From a phage, in NCBI GenBank assembly GCA_019338205.1, contig GCA_019338205.1_4761.1: DNA of 64,000 nucleotides; one strand, given 5' to 3'. The position numbers were made by a program, and so were the translations under genes. Below are positions 44,794 through 64,000 of this stretch, in pieces. Numbering within the stretch: the stretch's first letter is position 1; every line of letters starts with the position of its first letter. Below the pieces are notes generated by a model. The model was given only the letters and a program-made list of their open reading frames with translations, was not told the DNA's origin and searched no databases.

Positions 44794-44797
44794 TATT

Positions 44798-45262: not shown

Positions 45263-45274
45263 GGGGAATATATT

Positions 45275-46099: not shown

Positions 46100-46100
46100 T

Positions 46101-47306: not shown

Positions 47307-48775
47307 TGAAGATTGAAACATTAATTGCATTGCCAGCGGCGGGGAAAACTGATGCTATACTTTCCCACGTCCTAGAGACAAAAGAAAAAGCGGTTATTGC
47401 TTCGCCATCTCGTGTTTTAAGTGAACAATCTTACAATAAGTTTAAAAGAATGGGCGGTCGTGCTGTCTTGATTGATAGCACAAGACTAAGAAGCCTTAAG
47501 ACAGTGCAAGCGTCGATAATGCAATCAGTTAAAGACGGTGCTGATGTGATATTCATTACACATACAGCGTTATCTAATATGGAACGTTCAAAAATGTTTG
47601 GTGAATATGCTCTTTACATTGATGAAGTTCCTCAACTGGTTGAATTTAATGAGTATCCGTTTAAGTCTAATCTTGAACTTATCACGAAGCATTGCGAACC
47701 AATCGCCGACGAATCGGAATGCCTACAGAACTTAGTTCTAAAAGACTCTGAGAAGGCCGTTATCAAAGAAAAGATAGAAAGTGCAAAGGATGGTACTGAT
47801 ATGATCGATTCTTCTCTTAGAGGGCTTTATGAGGCGTTATTAGAGAAGAAAATCAACGTTATGGTAAAACATAACGAAGGACACCGGAAGAATGGGTCGA
47901 AAATTGTTTTCTTGAACGATAACAAACACGGTACGTGGGGAGACTTTAAAAAGGTTACGATAGCATGTGCAAATCTCTTTGATACATATAGCGGGAAGTA
48001 TCTACGATACTATGCAAATTGCGATTTTGTTCCGAGTGCGCTAGAATCCAGACTATATTTCAAAGAGTATAAAAATACAGATAGAGTTAATATCATCCTT
48101 ATGACGGACTCTGAACGATGGTCGCGTCACCAGTCAGAAACAAACAATACCTTTGAACGTCTTGTTGATATGGTTAAAAATGAATGTGGCGATGACTTCA
48201 TTTATACCGTGAATCGGGACCGAGAAGCGTGTACAAATGGTATTGGTGAGCGGATACCTTACGGATCTTATGGTCTTAACTCTTACATTCATCATAAAAA
48301 TGTTGCTGTGATGTTCAGCTTTAACCCGCAACGATGGGAGATTGATATTTTAAAAGGTCTTGCTAATAGTTGTGATCTCCCGACAAACGAGTTTTTGAAA
48401 GCGCGTCATGTGTCTGATTATCTGGAACCAGCATTTCAATTATGTTTGCGTTGTAACCTGAGAGACAACGAGAGCAAGGAGAATGTTAATCTATATGTTC
48501 CTGATTTGGCGTTGGTAGATTATCTAAAAACGTTTCTACCTGATGCCAATGTAATAACAGACCGAATGATTCCGCTAGAATGTGGTGAGCGTAAAGGGCG
48601 AAAATCATTTAAAAAGATGTTCGATTTTAACGAGCAAGAGAATGCAAGATTTAACGGATTTAAGTACCGCATGAAGAAAAAGGGAAAAACTCTTGATCCG
48701 TCTGACGGTGAATCTGTAGAGATGGTTAGAGTGTGGATAACTAAGCAAAGAAAGTATAATGGTAATGGGGAATAG
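47306..48775 (+). CDS. P-loop NTPase of unknown function (489 aa)
   Basis: Walker A LPAAGKTDA and Walker B ALYIDEVP; no counterpart recognised at this position in T4. Confidence 0.55.
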   Translation: MKIETLIALPAAGKTDAILSHVLETKEKAVIASPSRVLSEQSYNKFKRMGGRAVLIDSTRLRSLKTVQASIMQSVKDGADVIFITHTALSNMERSKMFGEYALYIDEVPQLVEFNEYPFKSNLELITKHCEPIADESECLQNLVLKDSEKAVIKEKIESAKDGTDMIDSSLRGLYEALLEKKINVMVKHNEGHRKNGSKIVFLNDNKHGTWGDFKKVTIACANLFDTYSGKYLRYYANCDFVPSALESRLYFKEYKNTDRVNIILMTDSERWSRHQSETNNTFERLVDMVKNECGDDFIYTVNRDREACTNGIGERIPYGSYGLNSYIHHKNVAVMFSFNPQRWEIDILKGLANSCDLPTNEFLKARHVSDYLEPAFQLCLRCNLRDNESKENVNLYVPDLALVDYLKTFLPDANVITDRMIPLECGERKGRKSFKKMFDFNEQENARFNGFKYRMKKKGKTLDPSDGESVEMVRVWITKQRKYNGNGE

Positions 48776-48815: not shown

Positions 48816-49349
48816 GTGTCTGATTATGTAAACAATAAAGAGCTTTACGAAGAAATTTGCCGTTGGAAACAACAAATTGCAGCAGAAGGTCGGCAAGTTC
48901 CAATGAGCGATCAAATCGGCCTAGCAATTATGCAAATCTCTAAAAATCTATCACGTCGTTTTAACTTTTCTGGTTATAGTCAAACATGGCGCGAAGAAAT
49001 GATCGACGACGGAATCGAAGCGGCGGTCAAGGGTTTGATTAATTTTGACGAGACAAAGTATAAAAATCCTCATGCTTACATCACGCAAGCGTGCTTTAAT
49101 GCTTTTGTACAGCGCATTAAAAAAGAGAGAACAGCGACAGCCGCAAAATACAAATATTTTGTGCATCATGTATATGACGAACGCGACGCTGATATGTGCC
49201 AGATTGCTGATGAGGCATTCATACAGGACATTTACGATAAAATCAACAACTACGAGGAATCGGTCAATAAACCGAAAGCGCCAAAGGTTGAAGATGTATT
49301 GACCGAGGAATTGCCTAGCCTGGACCAATTTTATGAGATTGAAAATTAA
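48816..49349 (+). CDS. 55: late transcription sigma factor gp55
   Basis: 177 aa; [16 protein letters not shown]-terminus typical of gp55; position between nrdH and gene 47. Confidence 0.85.
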
Positions 49350-49566
49350 CATTTCCCGTTTGCTGGAAGAAGCAGAGTTTGAAACTGACCTTGTGCCGTA
49401 TTTCGCCAAATTATTTTTGAGAGATTGCGGCGTTCCGGTGATTATCGATCCGTGCAATATCAAATCACCGGATCTTGAGGTCTTTACGGGTACAATCTCA
49501 CATAGCTATAATGTATCAGAAGATGAATTTTCTTTAATAATTGATTATATCCCAGAAGGAAAATAA
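49333..49566 (+). CDS. hypothetical protein (77 aa)
   Basis: ORF track. Confidence 0.4.
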
Positions 49567-49567
49567 C

Positions 49568-49855
49568 ATGACTTACGATGAACAGCATGACCAGATTGCA
49601 GTGAATGAAGTAGACAAAGTACAAGCAGAACTAGAGGCTAAAGCCGCTAAGAAAGCGGAAAAGATCTTGCGTAAGAACTCGCGAGAGATTGCACGCCTTA
49701 AGCGGTGGGCTGAACAAGCTATCATCGATGATAACCGTGATGCGTATATCTACGCTATCGGAAAGTTACGTGATATCTATAAACAGCCACACACGCCAGA
49801 ACTGCTTTCTGCTATGTGGATTAGTACACGGCAAACGGTATTAAGTATGCTGTAA
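49568..49855 (+). CDS. hypothetical protein (95 aa)
   Basis: ORF track frame; ATG 49568. Confidence 0.4.
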   Translation: MTYDEQHDQIAVNEVDKVQAELEAKAAKKAEKILRKNSREIARLKRWAEQAIIDDNRDAYIYAIGKLRDIYKQPHTPELLSAMWISTRQTVLSML

Positions 49856-49866
49856 TGGCTTTATAA

Positions 49867-49900
49867 GGGAGACTCCGAAAGGGGTTTCCCTTTTTATTTT
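49867..49900 (+). terminator. intrinsic terminator
   Basis: gggagac/gtttccc stem with one G-U pair, then TTTTTATTTT. Confidence 0.6.
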
Positions 49901-49945
49901 TCTATGATATAGTGAGAGCATCGAAAACGAAGAGAGGAAGAGACT

Positions 49946-50971
49946 ATGAAAATTTTGCTTTTAGGTGATCTGCATACTGGCATCGGTGGCGATGATCCGT
50001 GGGTGCATGAATATATTTTAGACACGATCAAGAAAGCGGTTGATTATTCTAAAGAAAACGGTATTAAGATATGGATTCAAACAGGGGATTGGTTTGATTG
50101 TCGCAAGGCTATCACACATGAAACCATGAAATTTAACCGTACTAAGGTCATCCCATTACTGGAAGAGGCAGGAATCACCTGTTATATCACGGTCGGGAAT
50201 CATGATATGTTTAAGCGCAATAAGATCCAGCCTAACTCGCCGCGTGAAGTGTTAAGCCAGTATGATTGCATTAAGGTTATTGATAAGCCGGAAACAGTTA
50301 CCTTTGATGGGGTATCATTCGACCTGTTCCCGTGGTTTTGTGATGACAATAAATCCGAGGTTTTAGAGTTTATTCAAAATTCATTCAGCGAATATTGTGT
50401 AGGCCATTGGGAGTTGTCCGGCTACTATTTCTATAAAGGGTTAAAATCCGAAGGTTATAGCGCGGACTTCCTCAAGAAATACCGTGAAGTGTTTTCCGGT
50501 CACTTTCATACTATCAGTGATGGCGGTAACGTAACGTATATAGGTACACCATACACACTAACGGCGGGTGACGAAAACGATCCGCGTGGTTTTTGGGTAT
50601 TCGATACAGATACACACAAAAAGGAGTTTATCCAGAATGACAAAACTTATCATGTGCGTATCACTTACCCGTCAGATGATAAAATCGATGTAGAACGCTT
50701 TAAAGGGCTTAGTGTGCGCCTAATTGCAACGGTCGCTGATAATGGGTTAACTAAGTTAGAAAGCGCGTTAGAGGCCGTTGTACACAAGCTAAAAGTGGTC
50801 CATAAGCTGGAGAGTAGCGCATCACAGGAAACAGGTGTTATTGAAGTTAAAAGCACTATTCAGATGGTCTATGAATATCTGGAAGAACAAAACCTAGAAC
50901 CGGAAGAACTTGCGGCAGTTAAGCGTATCTCTGATGAACTTTTAGCCGAAGTAAATAGCGCAAAAAGTTAG
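49946..50971 (+). CDS. 47: recombination endonuclease subunit gp47 (Mre11/SbcD-like)
   Basis: phosphoesterase motifs GDLH, GNHD, GHFH; 341 aa versus T4 339 aa. Confidence 0.93.
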   Translation: MKILLLGDLHTGIGGDDPWVHEYILDTIKKAVDYSKENGIKIWIQTGDWFDCRKAITHETMKFNRTKVIPLLEEAGITCYITVGNHDMFKRNKIQPNSPREVLSQYDCIKVIDKPETVTFDGVSFDLFPWFCDDNKSEVLEFIQNSFSEYCVGHWELSGYYFYKGLKSEGYSADFLKKYREVFSGHFHTISDGGNVTYIGTPYTLTAGDENDPRGFWVFDTDTHKKEFIQNDKTYHVRITYPSDDKIDVERFKGLSVRLIATVADNGLTKLESALEAVVHKLKVVHKLESSASQETGVIEVKSTIQMVYEYLEEQNLEPEELAAVKRISDELLAEVNSAKS

Positions 50972-52138: not shown

Positions 52139-52398
52139 TTCTATCGATGACCTACCTTAGACACAGGGTTATAGAAGGTCTTCGCGAATATCTGGCATTG
52201 AATAAAGGGATTTATGTTGATCCCTTTATGACATATGATCCTGCGACACTGGATTATGTGATCATGTTGCCAGATCGCAGAGACACATTAGTTAAAGTGA
52301 AGGCGGCAAGTGTTTACAACATTGATGAAGATGTGTTAGCATTTAATATTATGGAATGTGTGATTGCGGAGTGGATTAATGGCAAAGTTAAATTTTAA
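52135..52398 (+). CDS. hypothetical protein (87 aa)
   Basis: ORF track; ATGA overlap. Confidence 0.4.
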   Translation: MILSMTYLRHRVIEGLREYLALNKGIYVDPFMTYDPATLDYVIMLPDRRDTLVKVKAASVYNIDEDVLAFNIMECVIAEWINGKVKF

Positions 52399-54061
52399 AA
52401 CCTTGCGCTATCAAAATATAATGAGCGTTGGTGCTGAACCTGTAGAGATTCAGCTAGACGGATTCAAAAAGACACTAATCACTGGCGTTAACGGTGCTGG
52501 TAAATCAACAATGATCGAGGCGCTTTGCTTTGTGTTGTTCGGTAAACCGTTTCGTAGTATCAAGAAAGGCCAATTGATTAACAGCGTCAACAAAAAGAAA
52601 CTGTTAGTCGAAGTCTGGTTTGAACTGGACGGGAAAGAGTTTTATATCAAACGTGGTCAAAAGCCGGAAGTATTCGAAGTGCATCGCGACGGTCAAAAGA
52701 TCGACGAGAGCGCAAGCACCAAAGACTTTCAGGAATATTTTGAAGGTATCATAGGCATGAACCTAGCCAGCTTCAAACAGATCGTTGTTTTAGGCACTGC
52801 TGGTTATGTTCCGTTTATGAGTCTTCCGGCAGCGGGTCGCCGTAAACTGGTCGAGGATTTGCTTGATATTGCTACGCTAGGCGAAATGGATAAACTGAAT
52901 AAAGCGTATGTGCGCGAGATTACCCAGAATATCCAAATGCAGGAAATGAAAGCTAATCACGTTCAGCAACAAATCAACACTCATAAAAAGTACATAGAAG
53001 ACGCTAGCAAGGCGAGTGCCGAGAATCTCCAGCGTTTACAGAATATGTATGATAAAGAGGTGGAATCGGCTAAAGCATTTAAAGCCGAAGAAACTCGCTT
53101 GACCGATGAGCTATTGGCTGTTGTTATGCCGGAAGATCCTAGCGCGGCATTGGCTAAAATTAATACGGCTATCGCACAGATTGGTGCGCAGATCCAGAAC
53201 TTTGACCGTGTTATTCATATGCATGAGAAAGGAGGGATCTGTCCTACGTGCACACAACCGATCATTCAGGGTAATGATCAAGCGGTGCGCGAGCAAAAAG
53301 CACAAGCAGAACATAAGCTGTCTCTGATTGACGAGAAGCGCGTAGAATACGCAGAGAAAGCCAATTCTTTCCAGACAGCACAAACTAAGGTCTTGGAAAT
53401 TAAACGCGCTATAGAGTCACAGAGAGCTAATTTAACGGCATCTGTAGGTCGGGCTAAACAGATCCAGAAAGCAATTCAGGAATTACAAAAAGAAAGGGTT
53501 GACAATTCCGAAGAACTTGCTAAACTGGAACACGAACTGGTAGAGATCACTAATGAAAAATCAAAACTAGTTCTTGAAAAATATCACCGTGGATTTGTAA
53601 CAGAAATGTTGAAGGATTCCGGTGTTAAGGCGTCTATCGTCAAGAAATATATTCCATATTTCAATGATCGGATTGCGTATTATCTTGATATCATGGAAGC
53701 GGATTATATCTTTACGCTAGATGAAGAGTTTAACGAAACAATCAAATCACGGGGGCGTGAATCGTTTTCGTATACATCGTTCAGTCAAGGCGAAAAGGCA
53801 CGTATTGACCTTGCGATGCTCTTTACATGGCGTGATGTTGCTGGTAAAGTATCTGGTACTAATATTTCTTTGTTGGTACTCGACGAAATTTATGATGGGG
53901 CTACTGACGTTCAGGGCGTAAAAGCACTTGATTCCATCATTGACAAGTTAGATGATAACGTGTATATTATCAGCCATCGTGACCATAACCCTGATGATTT
54001 TAGCCGTCATCTCAAGATGGTTAAACGTGGGCGATTCACTGAAATGAATGTTAACATTTGA
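52379..54061 (+). CDS. 46: recombination endonuclease subunit gp46 (Rad50/SbcC-like ATPase)
   Basis: Walker A GVNGAGKST, CPTC zinc hook, Walker B LLVLDE; about 560 aa. Confidence 0.93.
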   Translation: MAKLNFKTLRYQNIMSVGAEPVEIQLDGFKKTLITGVNGAGKSTMIEALCFVLFGKPFRSIKKGQLINSVNKKKLLVEVWFELDGKEFYIKRGQKPEVFEVHRDGQKIDESASTKDFQEYFEGIIGMNLASFKQIVVLGTAGYVPFMSLPAAGRRKLVEDLLDIATLGEMDKLNKAYVREITQNIQMQEMKANHVQQQINTHKKYIEDASKASAENLQRLQNMYDKEVESAKAFKAEETRLTDELLAVVMPEDPSAALAKINTAIAQIGAQIQNFDRVIHMHEKGGICPTCTQPIIQGNDQAVREQKAQAEHKLSLIDEKRVEYAEKANSFQTAQTKVLEIKRAIESQRANLTASVGRAKQIQKAIQELQKERVDNSEELAKLEHELVEITNEKSKLVLEKYHRGFVTEMLKDSGVKASIVKKYIPYFNDRIAYYLDIMEADYIFTLDEEFNETIKSRGRESFSYTSFSQGEKARIDLAMLFTWRDVAGKVSGTNISLLVLDEIYDGATDVQGVKALDSIIDKLDDNVYIISHRDHNPDDFSRHLKMVKRGRFTEMNVNI

Positions 54062-54278
54062 CAGAGTAACGCAGCCGGAGTTAGAATTGTATACCTTAAT
54101 CAATCTATATTCCGGTGAAGAATATGTAGTTAGTATGGGGGATATGAAAAACAGCATATACAGCGATGCAGACATAACAAAAATGTTGTCTTGTCGTCAT
54201 CATGAGTTTATGCTGGTCCCCAACTTTGATAAACTCGATTACCCTGATGCTGGGGTTGCAACAAACTTTAGAACGTGA
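54048..54278 (+). CDS. hypothetical small protein (start uncertain)
   Basis: ORF track only. Confidence 0.25.
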   Translation: MLTFDRVTQPELELYTLINLYSGEEYVVSMGDMKNSIYSDADITKMLSCRHHEFMLVPNFDKLDYPDAGVATNFRT

Positions 54279-54308
54279 TATACTGATTTTATTTTGGAGA
54301 TTAATATT

Positions 54309-54686
54309 ATGACTACTTCCGCAAACCTGGCTAAAATTACTGTAGCAGACATTCAGAACAAGAAAACCAGTCTCGAATTTGACCGAGCAATGAACAAGAT
54401 CCGTAAAGCGTGGGTACTACAAATGCCGGAAAGCGAGAAAGCTAAAATGAAGGTTATCCCACAGCAAGCACGCTTTGAACTGTACGCGCATATTGATGAT
54501 ATGGTGCAAAAAGAATGGATCGCGGCAATGCGCAAGTATTACGATGATTCAATTGCTAAAGGTGCTAAAACTATTCGAGGTAAAGATATTCTCGAAAAAG
54601 GTTATCAGATTGACACTGATGAACTGCTGATTGAAGCCGCTAGCGTAGTAGTAACTCGTCTGATCGCAATTGCTGATGGGAAGTGA
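54309..54686 (+). CDS. hypothetical protein, possibly RpbA-like
   Basis: 125 aa between genes 46 and 45 where T4 has rpbA/45.2; no motif support. Confidence 0.35.
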   Translation: MTTSANLAKITVADIQNKKTSLEFDRAMNKIRKAWVLQMPESEKAKMKVIPQQARFELYAHIDDMVQKEWIAAMRKYYDDSIAKGAKTIRGKDILEKGYQIDTDELLIEAASVVVTRLIAIADGK

Positions 54687-54690
54687 TAGA

Positions 54691-55068
54691 ATGAAACGTA
54701 TGAGCTTAAAAGAACAAATGCTATTCATCCTACAAAATAGTAAATTATGTCATATTCCGTTTGACTATATCAAAGATAATGATGTAATGAACTACCGTCA
54801 CAGGATAGAGTGTATTGAGTGGTATTTTGTCCTAGATAAATTTGTTGATGATGTGATTCGTCGTAAACTTGCGTTTGATGTTCGTGGTGATCTGGTATAT
54901 CTCGACGGAAAAAAGACCGCAAAGAATCCTGTTACTGTCTATGCTCTGCAACAATACTTGACAGCTTACATTGGATTGAAGTATACTCACTCATCCGATA
55001 AGGAAGCCGAGAAAAAATTTATCGAAAGAATGCTAAAGATTCAAAATGAGCACGAAGTAAACCCATAA
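54691..55068 (+). CDS. hypothetical protein (125 aa)
   Basis: ORF track frame; ATG 54691. Confidence 0.35.
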   Translation: MKRMSLKEQMLFILQNSKLCHIPFDYIKDNDVMNYRHRIECIEWYFVLDKFVDDVIRRKLAFDVRGDLVYLDGKKTAKNPVTVYALQQYLTAYIGLKYTHSSDKEAEKKFIERMLKIQNEHEVNP

Positions 55069-55098
55069 TTAATTGATTAACATGATAAAGGTGATTTG

Positions 55099-55785
55099 AT
55101 GAAACTGACTAAAGAAACCATTGCTACCCTGAAAAACTTTTCCGCTATTAACCCAGGTATCATCCTGAAAAAAGGAAACGTCCTGATCACCAAAAACATG
55201 ACAAACGTTGTATATGGTGAAGCGACTCTGAATCAAGAACTGGAACACGAAATTGGGATCTATGATCTTAACTCTTTCTTGGGTATTCTGAATCTGGTAG
55301 GCGATGAAGCAGATATTACGGTTGATGACCGCACCGGAAACATTCGTGTGTCTAATGATCGTCTGAAAATTAATTATCCTGGTGCTAGTGCTGCCGCCAT
55401 CGTATCACCGAAAGGCCGAGTTACTCCACCTGCAAGCGATGTAGATTACGAACTGAGCAACGACGATCTGAAACAGCTTATGAAAATGAGCAATCAGCTT
55501 AAAGTGGATCGCCTTGAATTTCTTCCGATTGATGGTCGTCTGATGATCAAAGGCTGGGAAGAGATTGACAAAAATAATCCGAATGAGATGTTTTGTCTTG
55601 ATATGGGCGAATATACCGGAACCGCAGACTTCCATTTCTTTATTCGTAAAGATAACATGAAACTGGTTGCTACTGACTTCGGCGATTACAAACTTAGCTT
55701 CACTCGCCGTAAGGCTGTATGGCTGGCAAGTGAAACCGTATCTTATATGATCGCGTGTGACCTTGACTCCAGCTACACCGACTAA
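55099..55785 (+). CDS. 45: sliding clamp gp45
   Basis: MKLTKETIATLKNFSAINPGIILK matches T4 gp45 N-terminus. Confidence 0.95.
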   Translation: MKLTKETIATLKNFSAINPGIILKKGNVLITKNMTNVVYGEATLNQELEHEIGIYDLNSFLGILNLVGDEADITVDDRTGNIRVSNDRLKINYPGASAAAIVSPKGRVTPPASDVDYELSNDDLKQLMKMSNQLKVDRLEFLPIDGRLMIKGWEEIDKNNPNEMFCLDMGEYTGTADFHFFIRKDNMKLVATDFGDYKLSFTRRKAVWLASETVSYMIACDLDSSYTD

Positions 55786-55797
55786 TATAATGATTGT

Positions 55798-55817
55798 GGG
55801 GAGTGTAAATACTCCCC
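55798..55817 (+). other. stem-loop between genes 45 and 44 (ggggagt-gtaaat-actcccc)
   Basis: perfect 7-bp stem, weak GTTTT tail; same gggagt/actccc arms as promoter cassette hairpins. Confidence 0.4.
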
Positions 55818-55850
55818 GTTTTAATGATGTAATTTGTGAGAGGTGATTAT

Positions 55851-56825
55851 ATGCTGAGTGTTAATGAAAATGAGTTTCAGTGGGAACAGAAATACCGTCC
55901 GAAATCAATTTCTGAATGTATTCTGCCGGAAGCAGATAAAAAGATCTTCGCGCAGATTGTTAAGCAAGGCCGAATCCCTTCTATGATCCTGCATAGCCCA
56001 TCGCCAGGTACTGGTAAAACAACCGTTGCTAAGGCGCTTTGCGAAGATGTGGGTGTTGATTATCTGTTTGTTAACGGCGCAGATTGTAAGATTGATTTTA
56101 TCCGCGATGAGATTACACGCTTTGCGCAGAGTGTATCACTCGATGAAGAAAAAAGAGAAAAAGGCAAAGTTGTTATTATCGATGAGTATGACCGAGCGGG
56201 GCTAGCTGATGCTCAAAGACACTTGCGTAGTTTCTCTGAGGCATACTCAAACAACGTGACATTCATTATCACAGCAAACGATCTAGAAGGTATTATCCCA
56301 GCGTTACGATCTCGATTTGACCCCATCACGTTTGGATCTCCGACTAAAGATGATCAGCTTCGCATGATGAAAGAAATGATCGTCCGGTGTAAAGCAATTC
56401 TTGATAAAGAAGGTGTACCAGTAGAAGAAATGCGCGTATTAGCGGAATTGGTTAAGCAGAACTTCCCAGACTTCCGGCGCGTAATGAAACTTTTGGACCG
56501 CTACGCTAAACACGGTAAAATTGATGCTGGCGTATTGAGTATGGTTATCGAAAGTAGCAATACCGAAGTAACCGATGTGGTGGAAGCACTTAAAACTAAA
56601 CAGTTTGCTAATGTGCGTAAACTTGCACCACGCTATACCAATACATACGCTCAATTTGTCAAGAAACTTTATAATGAGTTGTATACTCAAGTTAAGCCAG
56701 CTTCTATTATTCGTCTGACCGAGATTATCGGTGAAAATAATCAGATGTTTGCGCACGCGGCTGATAAAGAGATTCACATTGTCTTTTTGTTAATGCAATT
56801 AATGGTTGAATTGGAGTTCGTATAA
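55851..56825 (+). CDS. 44: clamp loader large subunit gp44 (AAA+)
   Basis: Walker A PSPGTGKTT, Walker B VIIIDEYD. Confidence 0.95.
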   Translation: MLSVNENEFQWEQKYRPKSISECILPEADKKIFAQIVKQGRIPSMILHSPSPGTGKTTVAKALCEDVGVDYLFVNGADCKIDFIRDEITRFAQSVSLDEEKREKGKVVIIDEYDRAGLADAQRHLRSFSEAYSNNVTFIITANDLEGIIPALRSRFDPITFGSPTKDDQLRMMKEMIVRCKAILDKEGVPVEEMRVLAELVKQNFPDFRRVMKLLDRYAKHGKIDAGVLSMVIESSNTEVTDVVEALKTKQFANVRKLAPRYTNTYAQFVKKLYNELYTQVKPASIIRLTEIIGENNQMFAHAADKEIHIVFLLMQLMVELEFV

Positions 56826-57403
56826 TGTTAGGTCAATTTTTCGGTGAAGATGATACACAATTAAACGAGCATGAAATTGCATGGCGCTCTCGTGATTGGG
56901 AAAAGGTGTCTGAATTAGCGGATACATTCACCGAGAAAACCGACAATGCATTATTTGCTCTGATGGATCATATCACCTTAGATAAACAGCGCGTTAATGT
57001 TGGGAACAATTCTGCATACAATCAGAGATGGATTAATACCGCTCTTTCCCAGCACGCAGATTGTCTATATAGCGCGTATGTGATGAATTTAATCGGTCAT
57101 GGCCTCCCAGATCAAATGCATTTTGATTATCTCTTACAGAGTATTTCTAAGGGGAAACGATACGGTAAATGGGCTAAAATAACAGAAGAATTGGACCAAA
57201 AATTGGTTTTAATGGCAGTGGCGAAAGCATATTGTGTAAATATGGATGACGCCCGGTTTTATCTCGATTTGGCTAATGAAAAGGGATATATGGACAAGTT
57301 ATTGAAGCACATTAAACCGTATGCGACCGATGAACTTTTGGCGGGTGTTACTAAGAATCAGACAGAAAGGAAACGACTTAAAAAGATTATAGAAAGGTGG
57401 TAA
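56825..57403 (+). CDS. 62: clamp loader small subunit gp62
   Basis: 192 aa directly after gene 44 with ATGA-type coupling. Confidence 0.85.
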   Translation: MLGQFFGEDDTQLNEHEIAWRSRDWEKVSELADTFTEKTDNALFALMDHITLDKQRVNVGNNSAYNQRWINTALSQHADCLYSAYVMNLIGHGLPDQMHFDYLLQSISKGKRYGKWAKITEELDQKLVLMAVAKAYCVNMDDARFYLDLANEKGYMDKLLKHIKPYATDELLAGVTKNQTERKRLKKIIERW

Positions 57404-57404
57404 A

Positions 57405-57767
57405 ATGATTGAAATTAATTTGATTAGTCCTGAAAACTTCCTTAAAATTAAGGAAACTTTAACCCGCTGCGGCATTGCCAACAATCGTGACAAGACACTG
57501 TATCAGTCTTGTCATATTCTCCAGAAGAAAGGGCGCTATTACATCGTTCATTTCAAGGAGTTGTTGAAATTAGATGGTCGTAGTGTTAAAATGACGTGGG
57601 AAGATGAATTGCGCCGTAATAACATTGCAAAACTTCTTGCGCAGTGGAATCTATGCACCCTGATTGATAGTGATTTTGAAACTACCGAAGTTAATAATTT
57701 CCGTGTACTGTCTTTTAAACAGAAAGAAGAGTGGACGCTGATCGAGAAATATCAGATCGGGCGATAA
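57405..57767 (+). CDS. regA: translational repressor RegA
   Basis: MIEINLISPENFLKIKETLTRCGIANNRDKTLYQSCHILQKKGRYYIVHFKE close to T4 RegA. Confidence 0.95.
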   Translation: MIEINLISPENFLKIKETLTRCGIANNRDKTLYQSCHILQKKGRYYIVHFKELLKLDGRSVKMTWEDELRRNNIAKLLAQWNLCTLIDSDFETTEVNNFRVLSFKQKEEWTLIEKYQIGR

Positions 57768-57788
57768 GATACTGATGGGATAGGGGTA

Positions 57789-57817
57789 TTGACAAACTAA
57801 GTCGATTCCCCTATAAT
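57789..57817 (+). promoter_or_regulatory. sigma70-like promoter TTGACA-N17-TATAAT upstream of gene 43
   Basis: TTGACA 57789-57794, TATAAT 57812-57817. Confidence 0.55.
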
Positions 57818-57849
57818 GAGTGTCTTTCGTAAGTGAAGGAGTTTATATT

Positions 57850-60528
57850 ATGTATTTTCTGTCATGTGAGCGAGTAGGTGATAAGATCTACGAGCGTTAT
57901 ATTGATTATGCTGGACAAGAACAAGAGCGTTACGTTGAATATACGCCAACATTATTTCATCATGCCGCGCCTGGTATGGTTACGAATTATAAAGATATCT
58001 ATGGCAAGCCTTGCATTGCTAAAAAATTCCCATCTATGAACGAGGCCAACAAATGGCGTAAAAAGATGGGAGAAATGGGGCAAGAGGCACTAGGGATGGA
58101 TGATTTTATCATCTCCTATCTGTCCGATACATATAAAGGCGAGATTCGATATGACCGAAATAAAATCCGTGTAGCGTGGGTTGATATTGAGGTCACTGCC
58201 CCAGAATTTCCTAAACCAGAAGAAGCGAAATATCCTATCGATGCAATTACGCATTATGATTCCGTACATGATCGTTTCTTTGTATTTGATTTGAAAGGAA
58301 AAAACGGTGAAATCTGGGAAGCAAGCAAGTCTATTCTTCGACCTGATATTGTGGAGCGCGTTGTTTATAACGTTTATGACACAGAAGATGAATTGCTGTT
58401 AGAATACATCCGATTCTTTGAGGAAAACCGACCCGTTGGTTTCACTGGCTGGAACACAGAAACATTCGATATTCCATATATCATTAAGCGTATCAGCAAT
58501 AAGTTTGGAAGTCGAACGGCAAACCGTTTAAGCCCGTGCGGTAAGATTAAATCCCGAATCTCACAGGATGATTTTGGCAACGAGCGTGAAGCATTTACGA
58601 TCATGGGGATCGAAAGCCTTGATTATATTGACCTGTACAAGAAATTTAGCTTTACGACTCAACCAACATATGCGTTAGATTATGTTGCTGAATATGAGAC
58701 AGGAATCGGTAAGGTTGATTATGATGGTCCGTTAAAGAAATTGCGTGATGACAATCATCAACTTTACATCGATTATAACATCGGCGACGTTGATCGTGTG
58801 CTGGCGATTGATAAAAAGCGTGGATTTATCGATCTTGTGTATAGTCTATGTTTCTATGCAAAGATTAAATTTAACCATGTTTATAACCCGATGAAAGTAT
58901 GGGATGCTATCATCTTCGGATCTCTGAAAGCTGAGGGTAAAGTAGTACCGGAAAATAAGATACAGCCTAAGCAGACTTATCCGGGCGCATTCGTAAAAGA
59001 ACCTGTGCCGAATGCTTACCGTTGGATGATGAGCTTTGACTTAACAAGTCTGTACCCATCTATTATTCGACAGGTTAATATTTCTCCTGAAACAATCGCT
59101 GGATCTTTTGATGCTGCACCGATGCACGAGTATATCAATAAAACTGCACCACGTCCGAGTGATGAGTATTCTTGCTCGCCTAACGGATGGATGTATAGAA
59201 AAGATATTCATGGTATCGTACCGATTGAGATTAAAAAGGTATTCGATCAGCGTAAGCAGTACAAAAACATGATGTTGGCATGTGATCGCAATGCTGAACT
59301 ATGTAAAGCGATTCTACACGATGAAAATCATGTTTATGGGGGAACCATTAGCTATAGCGTTGAAGTGCGTCACGACTTTGATGAAGCGTTTAAATCGATG
59401 CTTTCTGAATTAAGTAAAGATGCCTTAGAGAAATTGCTGGAAGAATGTAAAGACGAGTCGATCTTGTGCAATACAAACCAGCTTTCTCGAAAAGTTTTGA
59501 TTAACTCCCTTTATGGTGCGTTGGGGAATCCTAAATTCCGTTTTTATGATCTCCGTAACGCTAGTGCGATCACCTTGTTTGGTCAGCTTGCAATTCAGTG
59601 GATTGAGCGTAAGATTAACGAATACTTAAACGAGCTTTGCGGAACAACCGATTTTGCATATGTTCGTTATTGTGATACTGACTCCGTTTATGTGCTGGTT
59701 AACAATGTTGTTGATAAGGTTGGCGGGGAAGACCGTTTCGACGATACCGAAAAACTTGTTGACTTCCTTGATAATTTCGGTAAACATCGAATGGAACCGA
59801 TTATCGACAAAGGATATCGCGAGTTATGCGAGTACATGAACAACTACGAGCACTTGATGTTTATGGACCGCGAGGCAATTGCTGGTCCTCCGTTGAAATC
59901 TGCGGGTATCGGTGGATTCTGGACTGGTAAAAAGCGTTATGCTCTTAATGTTTGGGATATGGAAGGAACGCGCTTTGCTGAACCTAAGCTAAAAATCATG
60001 GGCTTGGAAACGCAACGTAGCTCTACACCTAAAGCATGTCAGAAATCACTGAAAGAATGTATTCGCCGTATGTTGCAGGAAGGGGAAGAATCGCTACAGA
60101 AATACTACGGTATTTTTGAGCAAGAATTTAGAAAACTTGACTATCTTGAGGTTGCTGCGGTATCATCTGCAAACAACCTACAGAAATACAGCGATTCAAA
60201 CGGGTATCCGATTAAGGGTTGTCCGTATGCGGTTAAGAGTGTATTGTGTTATAATCGTAATGCTCGAAAATTCGGACTAGATCCGATTCGTGAAGGCGAG
60301 AAGGTTATGATTGTACCGCTTAAAGATCGAAATCCGTTTGGAGAAATCTGTTTTGGTTGGTTGTCTGGTACTCGTATTCCTCCAGAAATTGAATCAGAGG
60401 TGTTGAAGTGGTTGGACTGGCCTTTGTTGTTTAATAAGACTTTCGTCAAACCACTGGAGAACATTACCACGGCTGCAAAGCTGCAATATGAAAAGGTGGC
60501 ATCGCTCACGGACCTGTTTGACATTTAA
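57850..60528 (+). CDS. 43: DNA polymerase gp43 (family B)
   Basis: N-terminus and exo/pol motifs (FDIEV, YNIGDVD, SLYPSII, YCDTDS) align with T4 gp43; SD AAGGAG. Confidence 0.97.
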   Translation: MYFLSCERVGDKIYERYIDYAGQEQERYVEYTPTLFHHAAPGMVTNYKDIYGKPCIAKKFPSMNEANKWRKKMGEMGQEALGMDDFIISYLSDTYKGEIRYDRNKIRVAWVDIEVTAPEFPKPEEAKYPIDAITHYDSVHDRFFVFDLKGKNGEIWEASKSILRPDIVERVVYNVYDTEDELLLEYIRFFEENRPVGFTGWNTETFDIPYIIKRISNKFGSRTANRLSPCGKIKSRISQDDFGNEREAFTIMGIESLDYIDLYKKFSFTTQPTYALDYVAEYETGIGKVDYDGPLKKLRDDNHQLYIDYNIGDVDRVLAIDKKRGFIDLVYSLCFYAKIKFNHVYNPMKVWDAIIFGSLKAEGKVVPENKIQPKQTYPGAFVKEPVPNAYRWMMSFDLTSLYPSIIRQVNISPETIAGSFDAAPMHEYINKTAPRPSDEYSCSPNGWMYRKDIHGIVPIEIKKVFDQRKQYKNMMLACDRNAELCKAILHDENHVYGGTISYSVEVRHDFDEAFKSMLSELSKDALEKLLEECKDESILCNTNQLSRKVLINSLYGALGNPKFRFYDLRNASAITLFGQLAIQWIERKINEYLNELCGTTDFAYVRYCDTDSVYVLVNNVVDKVGGEDRFDDTEKLVDFLDNFGKHRMEPIIDKGYRELCEYMNNYEHLMFMDREAIAGPPLKSAGIGGFWTGKKRYALNVWDMEGTRFAEPKLKIMGLETQRSSTPKACQKSLKECIRRMLQEGEESLQKYYGIFEQEFRKLDYLEVAAVSSANNLQKYSDSNGYPIKGCPYAVKSVLCYNRNARKFGLDPIREGEKVMIVPLKDRNPFGEICFGWLSGTRIPPEIESEVLKWLDWPLLFNKTFVKPLENITTAAKLQYEKVASLTDLFDI

Positions 60529-60545
60529 GATAAAGTGTGTATAAT
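60518..60545 (+). promoter_or_regulatory. sigma70-like promoter TTGACA-N16-TATAAT overlapping gene 43 stop
   Basis: TTGACA 60518-60523, TATAAT 60540-60545, followed by short hairpin. Confidence 0.5.
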
Positions 60546-60589
60546 GGCGGGTGTTGGGTTACGATACCCACCAATGTGAGAAATATATT

Positions 60590-60778
60590 ATGAGAGACAT
60601 TGAAAAGATTAAACGTGAACGTGAGGAAGGCATAGAGCATTTCAAGAAAGTTCACGGAAATCACAGCAACGAAGTATTTGTGACGATCAATGTTGATGCG
60701 ATGAAAAAGTTAATTCAAGAGCACTACAAAGATCGAATAACAATGAAGCAATTAAAGTATTACGGATTAACTGAATAG
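60590..60778 (+). CDS. hypothetical small protein (62 aa)
   Basis: ORF track frame; ATG 60590. Confidence 0.4.
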   Translation: MRDIEKIKREREEGIEHFKKVHGNHSNEVFVTINVDAMKKLIQEHYKDRITMKQLKYYGLTE

Positions 60779-60789
60779 AGGTATTAATA

Positions 60790-61860
60790 ATGTCTGTACT
60801 GGAAAAACTGAAAAAGAACTCTACCCTGAAAACTACTGCGGTACTGTCTAAATCCAGCTTCTTTAACGAAAAAACAAATACTCGCACTAAGATCCCGATG
60901 CTGAATATTGCGTTTTCAGGTGATCTTAAAAAGGGCTTTCAATCTGGTCTGATTTTCTTTGCTGGTCCGTCTAAGCACTTTAAATCAAACATGGGATTAA
61001 CTTGTGTTAGTGCATACATGAAACAGAATCCTGATGCGGCGTGTTTGTTCTTTGATTCTGAGTTCGGTATTACACCCGCTTATCTTGAATCTATGGGTGT
61101 AGATCCTGATCGCGTGGTGCATGTTCCAATCAAGAACATCGAAGAACTTAAATTTGAAATCATGAACCAGCTTGAGCAAATTACCCGTGAAGATAAAGTG
61201 ATCATCTTTATTGACTCAATCGGTAACTTAGCAAGTAAAAAAGAAGTTGAAGACGCGATTAATGAGAAATCCGCACAGGATATGACGCGAGCGAAAGCAC
61301 TTAAAGGCTTGTTCCGTATGGTTACGCCGTATCTGACTATGAATGATATCCCGTGCATCGCTATTAACCACACTTACGAAACGCAAGAAATGTTTAGTAA
61401 GACCGTTATGTCCGGCGGTACGGGCGCGATGTATTCAGCCAATGAAGTTTTCATTATTGGTCGTCGTCAGCAGAAAGAAGGAACCGAAATTACTGGTTAT
61501 GATTTTATCCTGAATGCGGAAAAATCACGAACCGTTAAAGAAAAATCGAAGTTCCCGATTAGCGTAACATTTAGCGGTGGCATCGATCCTTATTCTGGCT
61601 TGCTGGAATTGGCTGTAGAGTTAGGTTGGGTAGTGAAACCGTCAAACGGCTGGTATTCTCGTTCCATCCTGAATACTGAGACCGGAGAGATGGAAACCGA
61701 AGAACGCAAGTTCCGTGCTAAAGAAACCAATAGCATTGAGTTCTGGAAACCACTTCTGACAAACGATAAGTTTAACGAAGCAATCAACGATCATTATAAG
61801 CTGGGGCAAGTGATCAGCGACGAAGCAGTTGACAAAGAAATCGAAGATATGTTAGCATAA
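60790..61860 (+). CDS. uvsX: RecA-like recombinase UvsX
   Basis: FFNEKTNTRTKIPMLNIAFSG...GPSKHFKSN...CIAINHTYETQEMFSKTVM aligns with T4 UvsX. Confidence 0.97.
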   Translation: MSVLEKLKKNSTLKTTAVLSKSSFFNEKTNTRTKIPMLNIAFSGDLKKGFQSGLIFFAGPSKHFKSNMGLTCVSAYMKQNPDAACLFFDSEFGITPAYLESMGVDPDRVVHVPIKNIEELKFEIMNQLEQITREDKVIIFIDSIGNLASKKEVEDAINEKSAQDMTRAKALKGLFRMVTPYLTMNDIPCIAINHTYETQEMFSKTVMSGGTGAMYSANEVFIIGRRQQKEGTEITGYDFILNAEKSRTVKEKSKFPISVTFSGGIDPYSGLLELAVELGWVVKPSNGWYSRSILNTETGEMETEERKFRAKETNSIEFWKPLLTNDKFNEAINDHYKLGQVISDEAVDKEIEDMLA

Positions 61861-61915
61861 CAATGGTAGTAAAGGGGCTACGTGCCCCTTTTTCATATCT
61901 AGAGAGGATTATATT

Positions 61916-62233
61916 ATGGATAAGAAACCAACAAGTTTAGAAGAAGCACACAGCTTGATTCAAGAAGCAATGAAGACAGTTATTCAGGAATTGATAATTG
62001 TTGATGAAGAGGGAGAACATCATATTGTCTATATTCATAATGTTGAATACGATCCAGACACTAAAGGTATTATGGTCGACTACTCCACGCCGTCAGATCG
62101 TGATGTGGTATATCCACACGTCATTAAGGCGTTAACCGCGCAGATCAAAGAAGCAGAAGAAAAGTTGAAAAAAGAAACTTTCTGGTATAAACTCAAGACC
62201 TTTGTTATGCGTGTAGTTGGGGGCTATGTATGA
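61916..62233 (+). CDS. 40: gp40-like head vertex assembly chaperone
   Basis: 105 aa between uvsX and gene 41 as in T4; hydrophobic C-terminus. Confidence 0.45.
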   Translation: MDKKPTSLEEAHSLIQEAMKTVIQELIIVDEEGEHHIVYIHNVEYDPDTKGIMVDYSTPSDRDVVYPHVIKALTAQIKEAEEKLKKETFWYKLKTFVMRVVGGYV

Positions 62234-63642
62234 TTAAAACTATCTTTTCACAGTTGATTTACAATGGCGCATTCTTTACGAATGTATGGCCTCACCTTAA
62301 AGCGGACTACTTCACCGAAGACGAAGAAAAACTGATTTATAAGCTGATTAAAAAGCACGTAGACGAATATTCCAATATTCCTACGCCAACTGCATTACAG
62401 ATTGCTTTAGACAAGGAGAGAGGCAATCAGACAACATATGAAGGGGCTAAAACTCTTCTTGATTCGCTTGAGAATACACCGGAAGACCTTGATTGGTTAA
62501 TGAAGGAAACCGAAAAATTTATTCGTGACCGCGCTATGTATAATGCAATGTCACGGGCGCTAGAGATTCAGGCGAACGCACAACTACCAAAAGAGAAACA
62601 GAATAAGAAATTGCCGAGTGAGGGTGCTATCCCTGAGATCATGCAGGAAGCACTATCCATTACGTTTGATTCTGATGTAGGTCATGACTGGTTTAATGAC
62701 TTTGAAAAACGATTCTTGCTATATCAGACTAAGGCGAATAAGATCCCGTTTAAGCTGCCGATGTTGAATAAAATCACGAAAGGAGGGGCGGAAAGAAAAA
62801 CGCTAAATGTGTTGCTTGCTGGTGTAAACGTTGGTAAATCGCTTGGCTTGTGTTCTCTTGCTGCGGATTATATGGAATGTGGTTATGATGTATTGTATAT
62901 CTCAATGGAGATGGCAGAGCATGTCGTAGCCAAACGTATCGACGCAAACTTGCTTGACATTACATTAGATGAATTGGATAATGGTAATGTTTCTTTTGCG
63001 GAATATTCCGCACGTATGAAGCGTGTTAAGAATAAGAAGATCGGGGATCGTCCGGTTGGAAAATTGATGATCAAGCAGTATCCGACTGGTGGCGCAAACT
63101 CCAATCACTTTGAGGCGTTAATGAATGAATTGCGACTCAAGAAACAGTTTAAACCTGATGTTGTGATTGTTGACTATCTGGGGATTTGCGCATCGTCTCG
63201 CTTGCGTGTATACTCTGAAAATAGTTACACACTAGTTAAGGCGATTGCGGAAGAACTGCGAGGATTTTTTGTTAAGTGGGATGTTGTTGGTTGGACTGCG
63301 GCACAGACTACCCGCGAGGGTTGGGATGCTTCCGACCTTAACATGAGTGATACCGCTGAATCAGCAGGTCTTCCGGCTACTGCCGACTTTATGTTGGGTG
63401 TTATCGAAACCGAAGACCTGGCTAAAATGGGCGTCCAACTCATGAAGCAGATCAAGTCTCGTTACGGTGATAAGAACTATTATTCACGGTTTAACGTTGG
63501 TGTGAAGAAAGGCAATCAGCGTTGGTATGAAGTACCAAACCAGATCGCAGATCAGGAGAATGCACAAGTTAAACCACAAAGCGCACAGCAAGCCGAGAAA
63601 CGAGAAAAACTCGACGAGCTAGCAAATAACATGACTTTCTAA
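62230..63642 (+). CDS. 41: replicative DNA helicase gp41 (DnaB-like)
   Basis: Walker A GVNVGKSLG, Walker B VVIVDYLG; 470 aa versus T4 475. Confidence 0.95.
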   Translation: MIKTIFSQLIYNGAFFTNVWPHLKADYFTEDEEKLIYKLIKKHVDEYSNIPTPTALQIALDKERGNQTTYEGAKTLLDSLENTPEDLDWLMKETEKFIRDRAMYNAMSRALEIQANAQLPKEKQNKKLPSEGAIPEIMQEALSITFDSDVGHDWFNDFEKRFLLYQTKANKIPFKLPMLNKITKGGAERKTLNVLLAGVNVGKSLGLCSLAADYMECGYDVLYISMEMAEHVVAKRIDANLLDITLDELDNGNVSFAEYSARMKRVKNKKIGDRPVGKLMIKQYPTGGANSNHFEALMNELRLKKQFKPDVVIVDYLGICASSRLRVYSENSYTLVKAIAEELRGFFVKWDVVGWTAAQTTREGWDASDLNMSDTAESAGLPATADFMLGVIETEDLAKMGVQLMKQIKSRYGDKNYYSRFNVGVKKGNQRWYEVPNQIADQENAQVKPQSAQQAEKREKLDELANNMTF

Positions 63643-63648
63643 TAAAAT

Positions 63649-63664
63649 GCGCCCTACGGGGCGC
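63649..63664 (+). other. GC hairpin after gene 41 (gcgccc-tacg-gggcgc)
   Basis: perfect 6-bp stem immediately after stop, no U tract. Confidence 0.3.
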
Positions 63665-63692
63665 TGGTGAATGATTTGATAGGAGATATAAC

Positions 63693-64000
63693 ATGATCGC
63701 TAATGCTTTACCGCCAAAATGGATCGTAAGTCGCTTTTATACTCTCAAGGAAGGTAACGCACCTGATGGTCGTCCGATCCGAGATCTGTTTCTGGAGATG
63801 ACTACAGCCGAAGCACAGTTTTATAATGATCTGACAGACGATAAGCCATTTCTCGTAAATTCGGTGGACCTTGATGGCAATGTCACATCAATCATCACAC
63901 ATGGTGGGGGAGTGAAAAATATTACTTCTCTGCGTGATCACGGTTGGGAAATTGCTTGTGTATTTCCTGCGGATGTACGCGGATTCTTTGATGAGGTATC
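63693..64000 (+). CDS. hypothetical protein, N-terminal part (runs off window end)
   Basis: ATG 63693 with SD AGGAG; open to window end. Confidence 0.4.
   Translation, partial: MIANALPPKWIVSRFYTLKEGNAPDGRPIRDLFLEMTTAEAQFYNDLTDDKPFLVNSVDLDGNVTSIITHGGGVKNITSLRDHGWEIACVFPADVRGFFDEV

Follow-up and report, generated by a model that had tools for sequence, protein, structure and literature searches.

Genes and features between DNA polymerase and UvsX

The window (the whole stretch of phage DNA analyzed here, 64,000 nucleotides) carries at 57,850 to 61,860 the DNA polymerase and recombinase genes of a T4-type replication cluster, which continues with genes 40 and 41.

57850-60528, plus strand: gene 43, DNA polymerase, 892 aa, 55% identity to T4 gp43 over residues 4-897
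60518-60545, plus strand: early-type promoter TTGACA-16-TATAAT, 12/12 match to the sigma-70 consensus, overlapping the gene 43 stop codon
60590-60778, plus strand: hydrophilic ORF of 62 aa, homologue of RB49p025, phrog_12120 (a family with no assigned function), E=1e-41
60790-61860, plus strand: uvsX recombinase, 356 aa, 64% identity to T4 UvsX, E=2e-152
61916-62233, plus strand: gene 40, tblastn E=4e-8 against T4, Pfam Phage_head_chap
62230-63642, plus strand: gene 41, 57% identity to T4, Pfam DnaB_C

Gene 43 is a single uninterrupted ORF with 0 internal stops, and its call on a 100%-identical contig contains the DNA_pol_B_exo1 and DNA_pol_B domains. UvsX contains RecA_N and T4_UVSX_C, and genes 40 and 41 behind it carry on the T4 gene order. 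The spacing from gene 43 to uvsX is 261 bp, whereas the T4 counterpart spans about 3.6 kb and holds imm.1, imm, 42, b-gt and segA. As the initial annotation had stated, gene 42, beta-gt and imm are all missing from this interval, which holds the promoter and the 62-aa ORF as its sole reading frame.

This small ORF has no Pfam match and was rejected as an Imm-like protein, for its GRAVY of -0.99 and maximum 19-residue hydropathy of 0.10 leave no hydrophobic segment, whereas T4 Imm (+0.97 and 2.74) has one of transmembrane grade. A small, strongly hydrophobic membrane protein of the T4 Imm kind is thus not found beside gene 43, and Imm has no match in the window or in RB49. The annotation of RB49 places a hypothetical early promoter at the corresponding position, and promoter/stem-loop cassettes termed PeSLs border gene 43 in RB49 and phi1 (PMC2839356); the promoter at 60518-60545 is part of the PeSL cassette reported beside this gene.

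The gene 55 to gene 47 interval

In T4, alpha-gt lies between genes 55 and 47. The same interval of the window consists of the following.

48816-49349, plus strand: gene 55, late sigma factor, 61% identity to T4 gp55, E=9e-69
49333-49566, plus strand: a-gt.5 homologue, tblastn E=6e-8
49541-49855, plus strand: a-gt.4 homologue, tblastn E=1e-12
49856-49945, plus strand: vacant alpha-gt slot, an intergenic gap of 90 bp with gene 47 downstream
49865-49892, plus strand: intrinsic-terminator-like hairpin, from a terminator scan
49946-50971, plus strand: gene 47, SbcD-like nuclease subunit, 56% identity to T4 gp47, E=1e-116

The a-gt.5 and a-gt.4 homologues belong to the families phrog_1169 and phrog_951, which have no assigned function, and because these two genes flank alpha-gt in T4, they mark the syntenic slot. 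T4 has in addition a-gt.3, a-gt.2, mobB, a-gt and 47.1 in this interval; here the two homologues are followed directly by the gap with its hairpin, so the claimed absence of alpha-gt near 55 and 47 holds. The alignment between the window and RB49 breaks at 49856-49945: the HNH endonuclease that RB49 encodes at this place, between a-gt.4 and 47, is missing from the window.

An RB49-type genome

From position 3 to 64000 the window aligns with RB49 (NC_005066) in collinear blocks of 96-97% nucleotide identity (96-98% in all comparisons with RB49, and 96-98.6% when the other Krischvirus records are counted), and the segment 57000-63000 matches 59 Krischvirus records (RB49 and 58 others) at 95-99% identity in the phage collection searched, which has no record identical to the window. 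The T4-type core order found by tblastn is 55, 47, 46, rpbA, 45, 44, 62, regA, 43, uvsX, 40, 41. Within the 64-kb window ARAGORN detects no tRNA gene, as in RB49, phi1 and JSE with 0 tRNA genes each (Petrov 2010, PMC2993671); Krischvirus has been described as an exception without tRNAs (PMC7552041). Judged by identity and collinearity, the window is part of a coliphage genome of the RB49 type (Krischvirus, “pseudo-T-even”), RB49 being the archetypal pseudo-T-even phage. The initial annotation had compared this DNA with pseudo-T-even phages, to which the window itself belongs.

With RB49, phi1, JSE, ECD7 and TB34 the window shares collinearity and the junction of 43, small ORF and uvsX with its early promoter; common to the RB49 group are also the a-gt.5 and a-gt.4 genes, an intron-less nrdD, a dam gene adjoining nrdC, the lack of tRNA genes and the lack of 42, gt, imm, alc and denB. 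A second contig (L008), 100% identical to window positions 52230-64000, extends 9.6 kb further in RB49 gene order.

Search for cytosine-modification genes

T4 gp42, alpha-gt, beta-gt, Imm and Imm.1 were searched by tblastn against all six frames of the window, and the best match reached only E=0.2; this beta-gt match, located within the ORF of gene 55, was discarded as chance. No glycosyltransferase, thymidylate-synthase or TET-like domain is present in about 30 ORFs of the window, including all unassigned ORFs of at least 190 aa. The initial annotation had allowed for modification genes elsewhere in the genome; none turned up in the 9.6 kb by which the 100%-identical contig extends past the window, nor in complete RB49. 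In the latter, alpha-gt, Imm, Imm.1 and DenB have no match at E<=1, and beta-gt, Alc (E=0.26) and Arn (E=0.03) have matches at chance level only (E 0.03-0.5).

The sole match of T4 gp42 in the complete RB49 genome is td (E=0.006). Matched to E. coli ThyA (E=1e-68), RB49 Td keeps Cys146, Arg166, Asp169 and Asn177. Asp179 of T4 gp42, the residue that specifies cytosine, aligns with an Asn in RB49 Td at the E. coli Asn177 position, the residue that specifies uracil. Td, the only thymidylate-synthase-family gene in RB49, is a true dUMP enzyme.

Of the T-even glucosyl-hmC system, sequence searches therefore recover neither gp42 nor a DNA alpha- or beta- (or beta-alpha-) glucosyltransferase in the window or in RB49, and no Alc, DenB or Arn in RB49. 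The same was reported for relatives: gene 42, alc and denB alleles are not found in the RB49-type phages RB49, phi1 and JSE (Petrov 2010, Table 4, PMC2993671), and a 2026 paper on the Durham Collection states this gene absence for the genus Krischvirus (PMC13390438).

Nucleotide metabolism and Dam

Several genes of nucleotide and DNA metabolism are kept in the window.

14498-15154, plus strand: gene 1, dNMP kinase homologue, 99% identity to RB49 gp1
36138-36950, plus strand: dam, N6-adenine DNA methyltransferase, 270 aa, TIGR00571 149.1 bits against a cut-off of 114.85
40485-42347, plus strand: nrdD, anaerobic ribonucleotide reductase, 620 aa, PF13597 positions 1-562/562, E=9e-176

NrdD scores 580.5 bits with TIGR02487 (cut-off 326) and contains the glycine-radical domain PF01228, as a full-length class III enzyme does, in one continuous coding sequence; an Rfam search of the window gave no group I intron and no family of any kind. 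The initial annotation had counted the uninterrupted nrdD toward its argument for cytosine DNA: the intron is indeed absent, but this has no bearing on DNA modification. Its Dam methylase is likewise borne out, with PF02086 at 104.6 bits against 22 (E=9e-30), a DPPY motif at residue 179 and 46% full-length identity to T4 Dam, which places the protein in the D12 class; its map position differs from that of T4 dam. Given this gene, GATC is probably adenine-methylated by the phage Dam.

The assignment of gene 1 is based on the annotation of RB49 gp1 as a deoxynucleoside monophosphate kinase, and this nucleotide-pathway gene is kept despite the absent gene 42. A homologue of gp56 (dCTPase/dUTPase) lies 4 kb past the window on L008, with 49% identity to T4 gp56 (E=2e-51), so that of the T-even hmC system putative gp56 and gp1 counterparts are present. 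The genes 56, denA and cd have roles in the hmC economy of T4, and RB49-type phages keep homologues of all three, as they do of gene 1; the retention of 56, denA and cd counts against ordinary cytosine DNA.

Avoidance of palindromes

Six-base palindromes are depleted in the window, with an observed/expected ratio (O/E) of 0.68 overall. The ratio falls below 0.5 for 41% of palindromes versus 1.8% among hexamers that are not palindromes (Mann-Whitney p=3e-19), and 24 of the 64 palindromes are absent, among them TCCGGA (0 observed, 28 expected), GAATTC (0/16), AAGCTT (0/14) and GGATCC (0/13). Palindromes that contain C/G stand at 0.59 and those of A/T only at 0.86, CCWGG occurs 28 times against 67 expected, and several six-base palindromes, GCTAGC, TCTAGA and GTATAC among them, are not avoided. 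As a control, 72 kb of T4 gave an O/E of 0.92 (p=0.07), that is, no avoidance. GATC has a Markov O/E of 1.06 in the window versus 0.33 in T4, with 366 occurrences versus 262 +/- 14 in shuffles. This avoidance shows, independently of gene content, the sequence signature of restriction-exposed DNA under long-term exposure to type II enzymes.

Cytosine chemistry and alternative explanations

Cytosine DNA in the RB49-like group is already known since about 2002 and has been repeated in reviews; for RB49 it was reportedly established by Monod et al. in 1997 and by Desplats et al. in 2002. RB49 DNA is cut by HpaII and NheI and is without hmC or glucosyl-hmC (PMC4041780), TB34, another Krischvirus, has canonical bases with no modification detectable by HPLC/MS (PMC13390438), and RB49 transduces plasmids, which needs tolerance of cytosine DNA (PMC12115623). 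Together with the missing genes and the avoided palindromes, the canonical chemistry of RB49 and TB34 backs the proposal of the initial annotation, and the phage of the window very probably makes ordinary cytosine DNA without T4-style modification genes.

That said, “unmodified cytosine” would be an approximation if the DNA carried extra site-specific methylation (5mC, N4mC or non-GATC m6A) on otherwise not hypermodified cytosine, which we regard as rather unlikely. Candidate enzymes are RB49p189, which matches the phrog_757 'DNA methyltransferase' family at E=7e-90 and whose FPPC and ENP motifs recall those of C5-cytosine methylases, and RB49p143, of phrog_3820, with an NPPF motif and MTS/Eco57I-like domains; the unavoided palindromes mentioned above would also fit. 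However, both genes lie outside the window, RB49p189 has no sequence match in Pfam, NCBIfam or PDB and its cytosine-C5 assignment comes from motifs alone, and the HpaII and NheI cleavage of RB49 DNA and the HPLC/MS profile of TB34 both speak against such methylation.

It is very improbable that Krischvirus, including the phage of the window, hypermodifies its cytosine by a pathway that shares no homology with gp42 or with any known DNA glucosyltransferase, replacing it with hmC or gentiobiosyl-hmC by unrelated enzymes or a switchable or host-dependent route, in which case the absence of genes would be uninformative. The argument for it comes from the Krischvirus SAP, for which HPLC/MS found about one third 5-hmdC and two thirds alpha-gentiobiosyl-methyl-dC, supported by BrxU sensitivity, with no explaining genes (PMC13390438); SAP is 98.3% identical to the window over 57000-63000. 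The gene 56 homologue is kept as well, and genes for such a route could be sought among unassigned ORFs in the nrdD-to-55 region of the window, for example 42448-43529, the phrog_5347 paralogues at 44257-46583 and a 489-aa P-loop protein at 47306-48775. Yet SAP is 99.96% identical to the unmodified TB34, the 0.04% difference holds no candidate gene, and the SAP profile equals that of seven T6-like Tequatrovirus phages in the same collection (PMC13390438), so that a mixed or mislabelled stock appears to be the simpler reading. The deep palindrome avoidance, which records the long exposure of the lineage to type II enzymes, also tips the balance toward a stock mix-up, and the RB49 and TB34 DNAs are unmodified (PMC4041780; PMC13390438).

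It is likewise very improbable that gene 42 and glycosyltransferase genes sit outside the 64-kb window, for example in an acquired cassette giving hmC DNA: the exact genome is covered by the window and 9.6 kb, about 90 kb more lies outside and Krischvirus genomes differ by accessory-gene and homing-endonuclease insertions, but RB49, phi1, JSE and the genus lack such genes (PMC2993671; PMC13390438), T4 hmC replication also needs alc and denB, which the syntenic RB49 neighbourhoods do not have, and deep avoidance of C/G-containing palindromes would not persist in hmC-protected DNA, as the T4 control indicates.

Proposed origin of the cytosine genome

We therefore return to ordinary cytosine DNA as the preferred reading. 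The phage keeps the T4 order 55-47-46-45-44-62-regA-43-uvsX-40-41 and would either never have carried the T-even cassettes (imm, 42, beta-gt and segA between 43 and uvsX; alpha-gt and mobB between 55 and 47) or have lost them long ago. Lacking a dCMP hydroxymethylase, a DNA glucosyltransferase and, to judge from RB49, also Alc and DenB, it would replicate with ordinary dCTP and package cytosine DNA, a step predicted for the phage of the window and established by experiment for RB49 and TB34. The lineage limits restriction through the purge of most C/G-containing six-base palindromes and CCWGG from its sequence rather than by blanket base modification, and GATC, the one common palindrome without avoidance, would probably be covered by the phage's own Dam.

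The window resembles T4 in its core genes, which have a shared order and 33-65% protein identity and include nrdD, nrdG, nrdH and dam, and differs in having an intron-less nrdD and no gp42, alpha-gt, beta-gt, Imm, Alc, DenB or Arn. T4 dC mutants (42-, 56-, denB-, alc-) are laboratory strains that make cytosine DNA and are functionally in an equivalent state: T4-type replication on cytosine DNA, the lack of Alc and DenB and plasmid transduction are shared, whereas the RB49-like condition is a natural evolved state with restriction adaptation at the sequence level and a retained gene 56 homologue. PMC12115623 refers to the four-gene T4 C(+) strain.

Cytosine DNA accounts for RB49-like DNA being cut by ordinary restriction enzymes and easily cloned and sequenced, and such DNA should escape hmC-dependent type IV enzymes. 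It also accounts for generalized plasmid transduction by RB49-like phages, which is relevant to phage-therapy safety. One live question nearby is the hypermodified SAP without modification genes, reported in 2026 (PMC13390438).

Both “empty slots” are regulatory junctions, one with a consensus early promoter and the other with a terminator hairpin, and at junctions of such kind T4-type phages exchange accessory genes and homing endonucleases.

Krischvirus genomes vary by inserted accessory genes and homing endonucleases. Compared with RB49, the window has two additional homing-endonuclease-like ORFs, at 10395-11090 and within 12287-13417, and a gp38 adhesin gene with an in-frame TGA.

Relationship to RB49

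The archetype of the 'pseudo-T-even' phages is RB49, a coliphage of the genus Krischvirus. A megablast search with window positions 57000-63000 matched 59 phage records with identities of 95-99%, every one an RB49-like member of Krischvirus; the best record reaches 98.6% and RB49 itself (NC_005066) 98.1%. The whole window is collinear with RB49 from ~74,350 to 12,321 (reverse strand) at 96-97% identity with few insertions or deletions. No record identical to the window was present in the phage collection searched, and exact-protein look-ups with gp8 and gp6 from its left end gave no match. Contig 68 of sequencing run SRR15243799, a Logan contig of 47.9 kb, matches window 52230-64000 at 100% identity and reaches 9.6 kb further right.

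Two ORFs of the window are absent from RB49. The first, between genes 53 and 4 (10395-11090; phrog_655), is a Mob-like homing endonuclease of the HNH type that matches T4 MobB and MobC. The second follows gene 2 (12287-13417; phrog_681); it is endonuclease-like and contains a CapR domain. The gp38-type tail-fibre adhesin gene (30499-31278) carries an in-frame TGA at codon 69 (30703-30705) where RB49 has GGA (Gly), and its frame is otherwise open and 83% identical to RB49 gp38. A nonsense mutation, readthrough or an error of sequencing could each account for this TGA.

The Slots Occupied by Modification Genes in T4

Proteins from the annotated T4 record served as tblastn queries against the six-frame translation of the window. 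The T4 order on the + strand reads 55, a-gt.5, a-gt.4, 47, 46, rpbA, 45, 44, 62, regA, 43, uvsX, 40 and 41.

Features of the window around the 55-47 and 43-uvsX intervals, with dam and nrdD
36138-36950: dam; passes the Dam-family cut-off, aligns with T4 Dam along its entire length at 46% identity, DPPY at residue 179
40485-42347: nrdD; continuous 620-aa ORF covering the full NRDD profile and passing the NCBIfam equivalog cut-off
48816-49349, + strand: gene 55; T4-protein six-frame search
49865-49892: terminator-like hairpin in the 90-bp gap before gene 47
49946-50971, + strand: gene 47; T4-protein six-frame search
57850-60528, + strand: gene 43; single ORF of 892 aa with no internal stop
60518-60545, + strand: promoter; perfect consensus match TTGACA-16-TATAAT
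60590-60778, + strand: 62-aa ORF; strongly hydrophilic, phrog_12120, a phage family without known function
60790-61860, + strand: uvsX; T4-protein six-frame search

Only 261 bp separate gene 43 from uvsX, and these hold one promoter and the 62-aa ORF, whereas the T4 interval of ~3.6 kb carries imm.1, imm, 42, b-gt and segA. RB49 is annotated with an early promoter at the equivalent place; promoter/stem-loop cassettes are reported to border gene 43 in RB49 and phi1 (PMC2839356), and the window promoter corresponds to them. The 62-aa ORF was considered as an analogue of Imm, which is a membrane protein, and was ruled out by its hydropathy. Gene 43 is intact here; in some of the Krischvirus records matched by window 57000-63000 (ELT4, MIZ4, MIZ5 and ECD7) it is split by an insertion of ~1.1 kb, to which the annotations of MIZ4, MIZ5 and ECD7 (RefSeq) assign an HNH endonuclease and that of ELT4 a hypothetical product.

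Between genes 55 and 47 lie only the a-gt.5 and a-gt.4 homologues followed by the 90-bp gap, while T4 also carries a-gt.3, a-gt.2, mobB, a-gt and 47.1 in this interval. RB49 has an HNH endonuclease in the gap between a-gt.4 and 47, unlike the window. A 489-aa ORF that immediately precedes 55.2 and gene 55 (47306-48775; phrog_2467, function not annotated) has a P-loop/DEAD-helicase-like domain at its N terminus (PF00270, E=3e-6) and is hypothetical in the RB49 annotation.

The initial annotation had reported the absence of gene 42, beta-gt and imm from the first interval and of alpha-gt from the second, together with an uninterrupted nrdD and an encoded Dam methylase. As the checks on the intervals, nrdD and dam all agree, these four observations are correct, and no group I intron or any other Rfam family was detected in the window. 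What does not hold is the use of the intron-less nrdD as a sign of the DNA modification state. Even the T-evens carry group I introns only sporadically, so their absence from nrdD is a separate matter with no bearing on DNA chemistry. In the same neighbourhood, four tandem paralogous ORFs (phrog_5347, function not annotated) lie between nrdG and nrdH at 44257-46583, related to the C-terminal half of a 392-aa goF-like protein (38713-39891, within the region 38071-39891).

Search for Modification Genes Elsewhere

T4 gp42, alpha-gt, beta-gt, Imm and Imm.1 gave no match better than E=0.2 in the six frames of the window; the weak match of beta-gt (E=0.22, 25% over 130 aa) falls inside gene 55, in its reading frame, and is due to chance. 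We also rebuilt the complete RB49 genome from five pieces and searched it with T4 proteins (E<=1). Homologues of 56, cd, denA, frd and dam were found, beta-gt, Alc and Arn gave chance-level matches only (E 0.03-0.5), and alpha-gt, Imm, Imm.1, DenB, Ndd, MotA and AsiA had no match in the whole genome. Pfam, PHROGs and NCBIfam scans of ~30 window ORFs, among them every unassigned one of at least 190 aa, showed no glycosyltransferase, thymidylate-synthase or dioxygenase domain. As a search for hidden modification enzymes, these scans yielded only homing endonucleases, goF-like, P-loop/DEAD-like and RlaP-type nucleotidyltransferase proteins, and families without known function. The 9.6 kb past the window on the identical contig encode only dc2, dc1, 61, a homologue of gene 56, modB, srd, dda, dexA and 39. 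The proviso that gene 42 and the glucosyltransferase genes might lie outside the window finds no support in the complete RB49 genome or this contig, which contain none of them.

One candidate for a disguised gene 42 was RB49 td (NC_005066 136870-138102), whose product, at 410 aa, is unusually long because it carries a large insertion between the positions of E. coli residues 82 and 110. This product matches E. coli ThyA (E=1e-68) and conserves Cys146, Arg166, Asp169 and Asn177. In direct alignment, Asp179 of T4 gp42, the residue known to switch the enzyme from uracil to cytosine, pairs with the Asn of RB49 Td equivalent to Asn177. The ThyA-like alignment and the Asn at the base-specifying position rule out a disguised gene 42, and the only superfamily member in RB49 is therefore a true thymidylate synthase.

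Two further RB49 proteins encoded outside the window resemble methyltransferases. RB49p189 (238 aa, NC_005066 115890-116606; phrog_757) has FPPC and ENP motifs like motifs IV and VI of cytosine-C5 methylases; as nothing in Pfam, NCBIfam or the PDB sequences matches it, its being such a methylase is a motif-level guess. RB49p143 (279 aa, NC_005066 74465-75304), which starts ~100 bp past the left end of the window, has an NPPF motif and MTS/Eco57I-like domains.

Avoidance of Palindromic Sites

DNA exposed to type II restriction tends to lose palindromic sites, while DNA shielded by glucosyl-hydroxymethylcytosine does not. By a maximal-order Markov model, the 6-bp palindromes of the window have a total observed/expected ratio (O/E) of 0.68, and 41% of them fall below 0.5, whereas the share among non-palindromic hexamers is 1.8% (Mann-Whitney p=3e-19). 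The complete RB49 genome gives a similar picture (0.70, p=1e-20), and 72 kb of T4 (loci L002 and L007) shows no palindrome effect (0.92, p=0.07). Missing from the window are 24 of the 64 palindromes, 16 of these with at least 4 expected copies; TCCGGA (0 observed/28 expected), GAATTC (0/16), AAGCTT (0/14), ACCGGT (0/14) and GGATCC (0/13) are examples. Palindromes containing C/G are more depleted (O/E 0.59) than those of A/T only (0.86), CCWGG occurs 28 times against 67 expected, and GGCC has an O/E of 0.53. This loss marks a lineage in which restriction enzymes have long been able to reach the cytosines.

GATC is not avoided in the window (O/E 1.06; 366 observed vs 262 +/- 14 in shuffles). It is at expectation in RB49 as well, unlike in T4, although this phage, RB49 and T4 all encode Dam; in the same 72 kb of T4 it is strongly under-represented (79 observed, 237 expected, O/E 0.33). 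The GATC pattern is compatible with protection by Dam methylation from the phage, the host or both.

Cytosine DNA in Krischvirus

Alleles of gene 42, alc and denB occur in T-even, JS98, RB69, CC31 and some Acinetobacter and Aeromonas phages and not in the RB49 type, while gene 56 is present in all these groups (Petrov et al. 2010, PMC2993671). RB49 lacks the hydroxymethylase and beta-glucosyltransferase, and its DNA is cleaved by the cytosine-modification-sensitive enzymes HpaII and NheI (Yaung et al. 2014, PMC4041780). It also performs plasmid transduction (PMC12115623), Krischvirus is described as lacking hydroxymethylcytosine and endonuclease IV genes (PMC12115623; PMC8056088), and the Krischvirus phage TB34 has canonical bases by HPLC/MS (2026, PMC13390438). 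The missing modification genes restate a defining, long-published and already known property of the RB49 type. Cytosine DNA in close relatives has been shown by others; gene content, the empty syntenic slots, the identity of Td and the palindrome purge are our own observations. The cytosine-containing DNA proposed in the initial annotation is thus supported by gene content, the RB49 and TB34 experiments and palindrome avoidance.

One real caveat has been published. The Krischvirus phage SAP was reported to contain a hypermodified cytosine, left unexplained by its authors (PMC13390438), from which a cryptic cytosine-modification route in the genus would follow. Yet seven T6-like phages of the same collection share the SAP profile (PMC13390438); a mixed or mislabelled stock would be the simplest explanation, and we consider a cryptic route very improbable. 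With cytosine-containing DNA, the phage would replicate with dCTP, its DNA probably being tolerated because neither Alc nor DenB is present, and site avoidance with methylation may stand in for blanket base modification. A phage that should need dCTP nevertheless keeps a homologue of T4 gene 56 (dCTPase/dUTPase, 49% identity), 4 kb past the right end of the window at 14084-14602 of L008, the identical contig; it would then presumably work as a dUTPase that feeds thymidylate synthesis.
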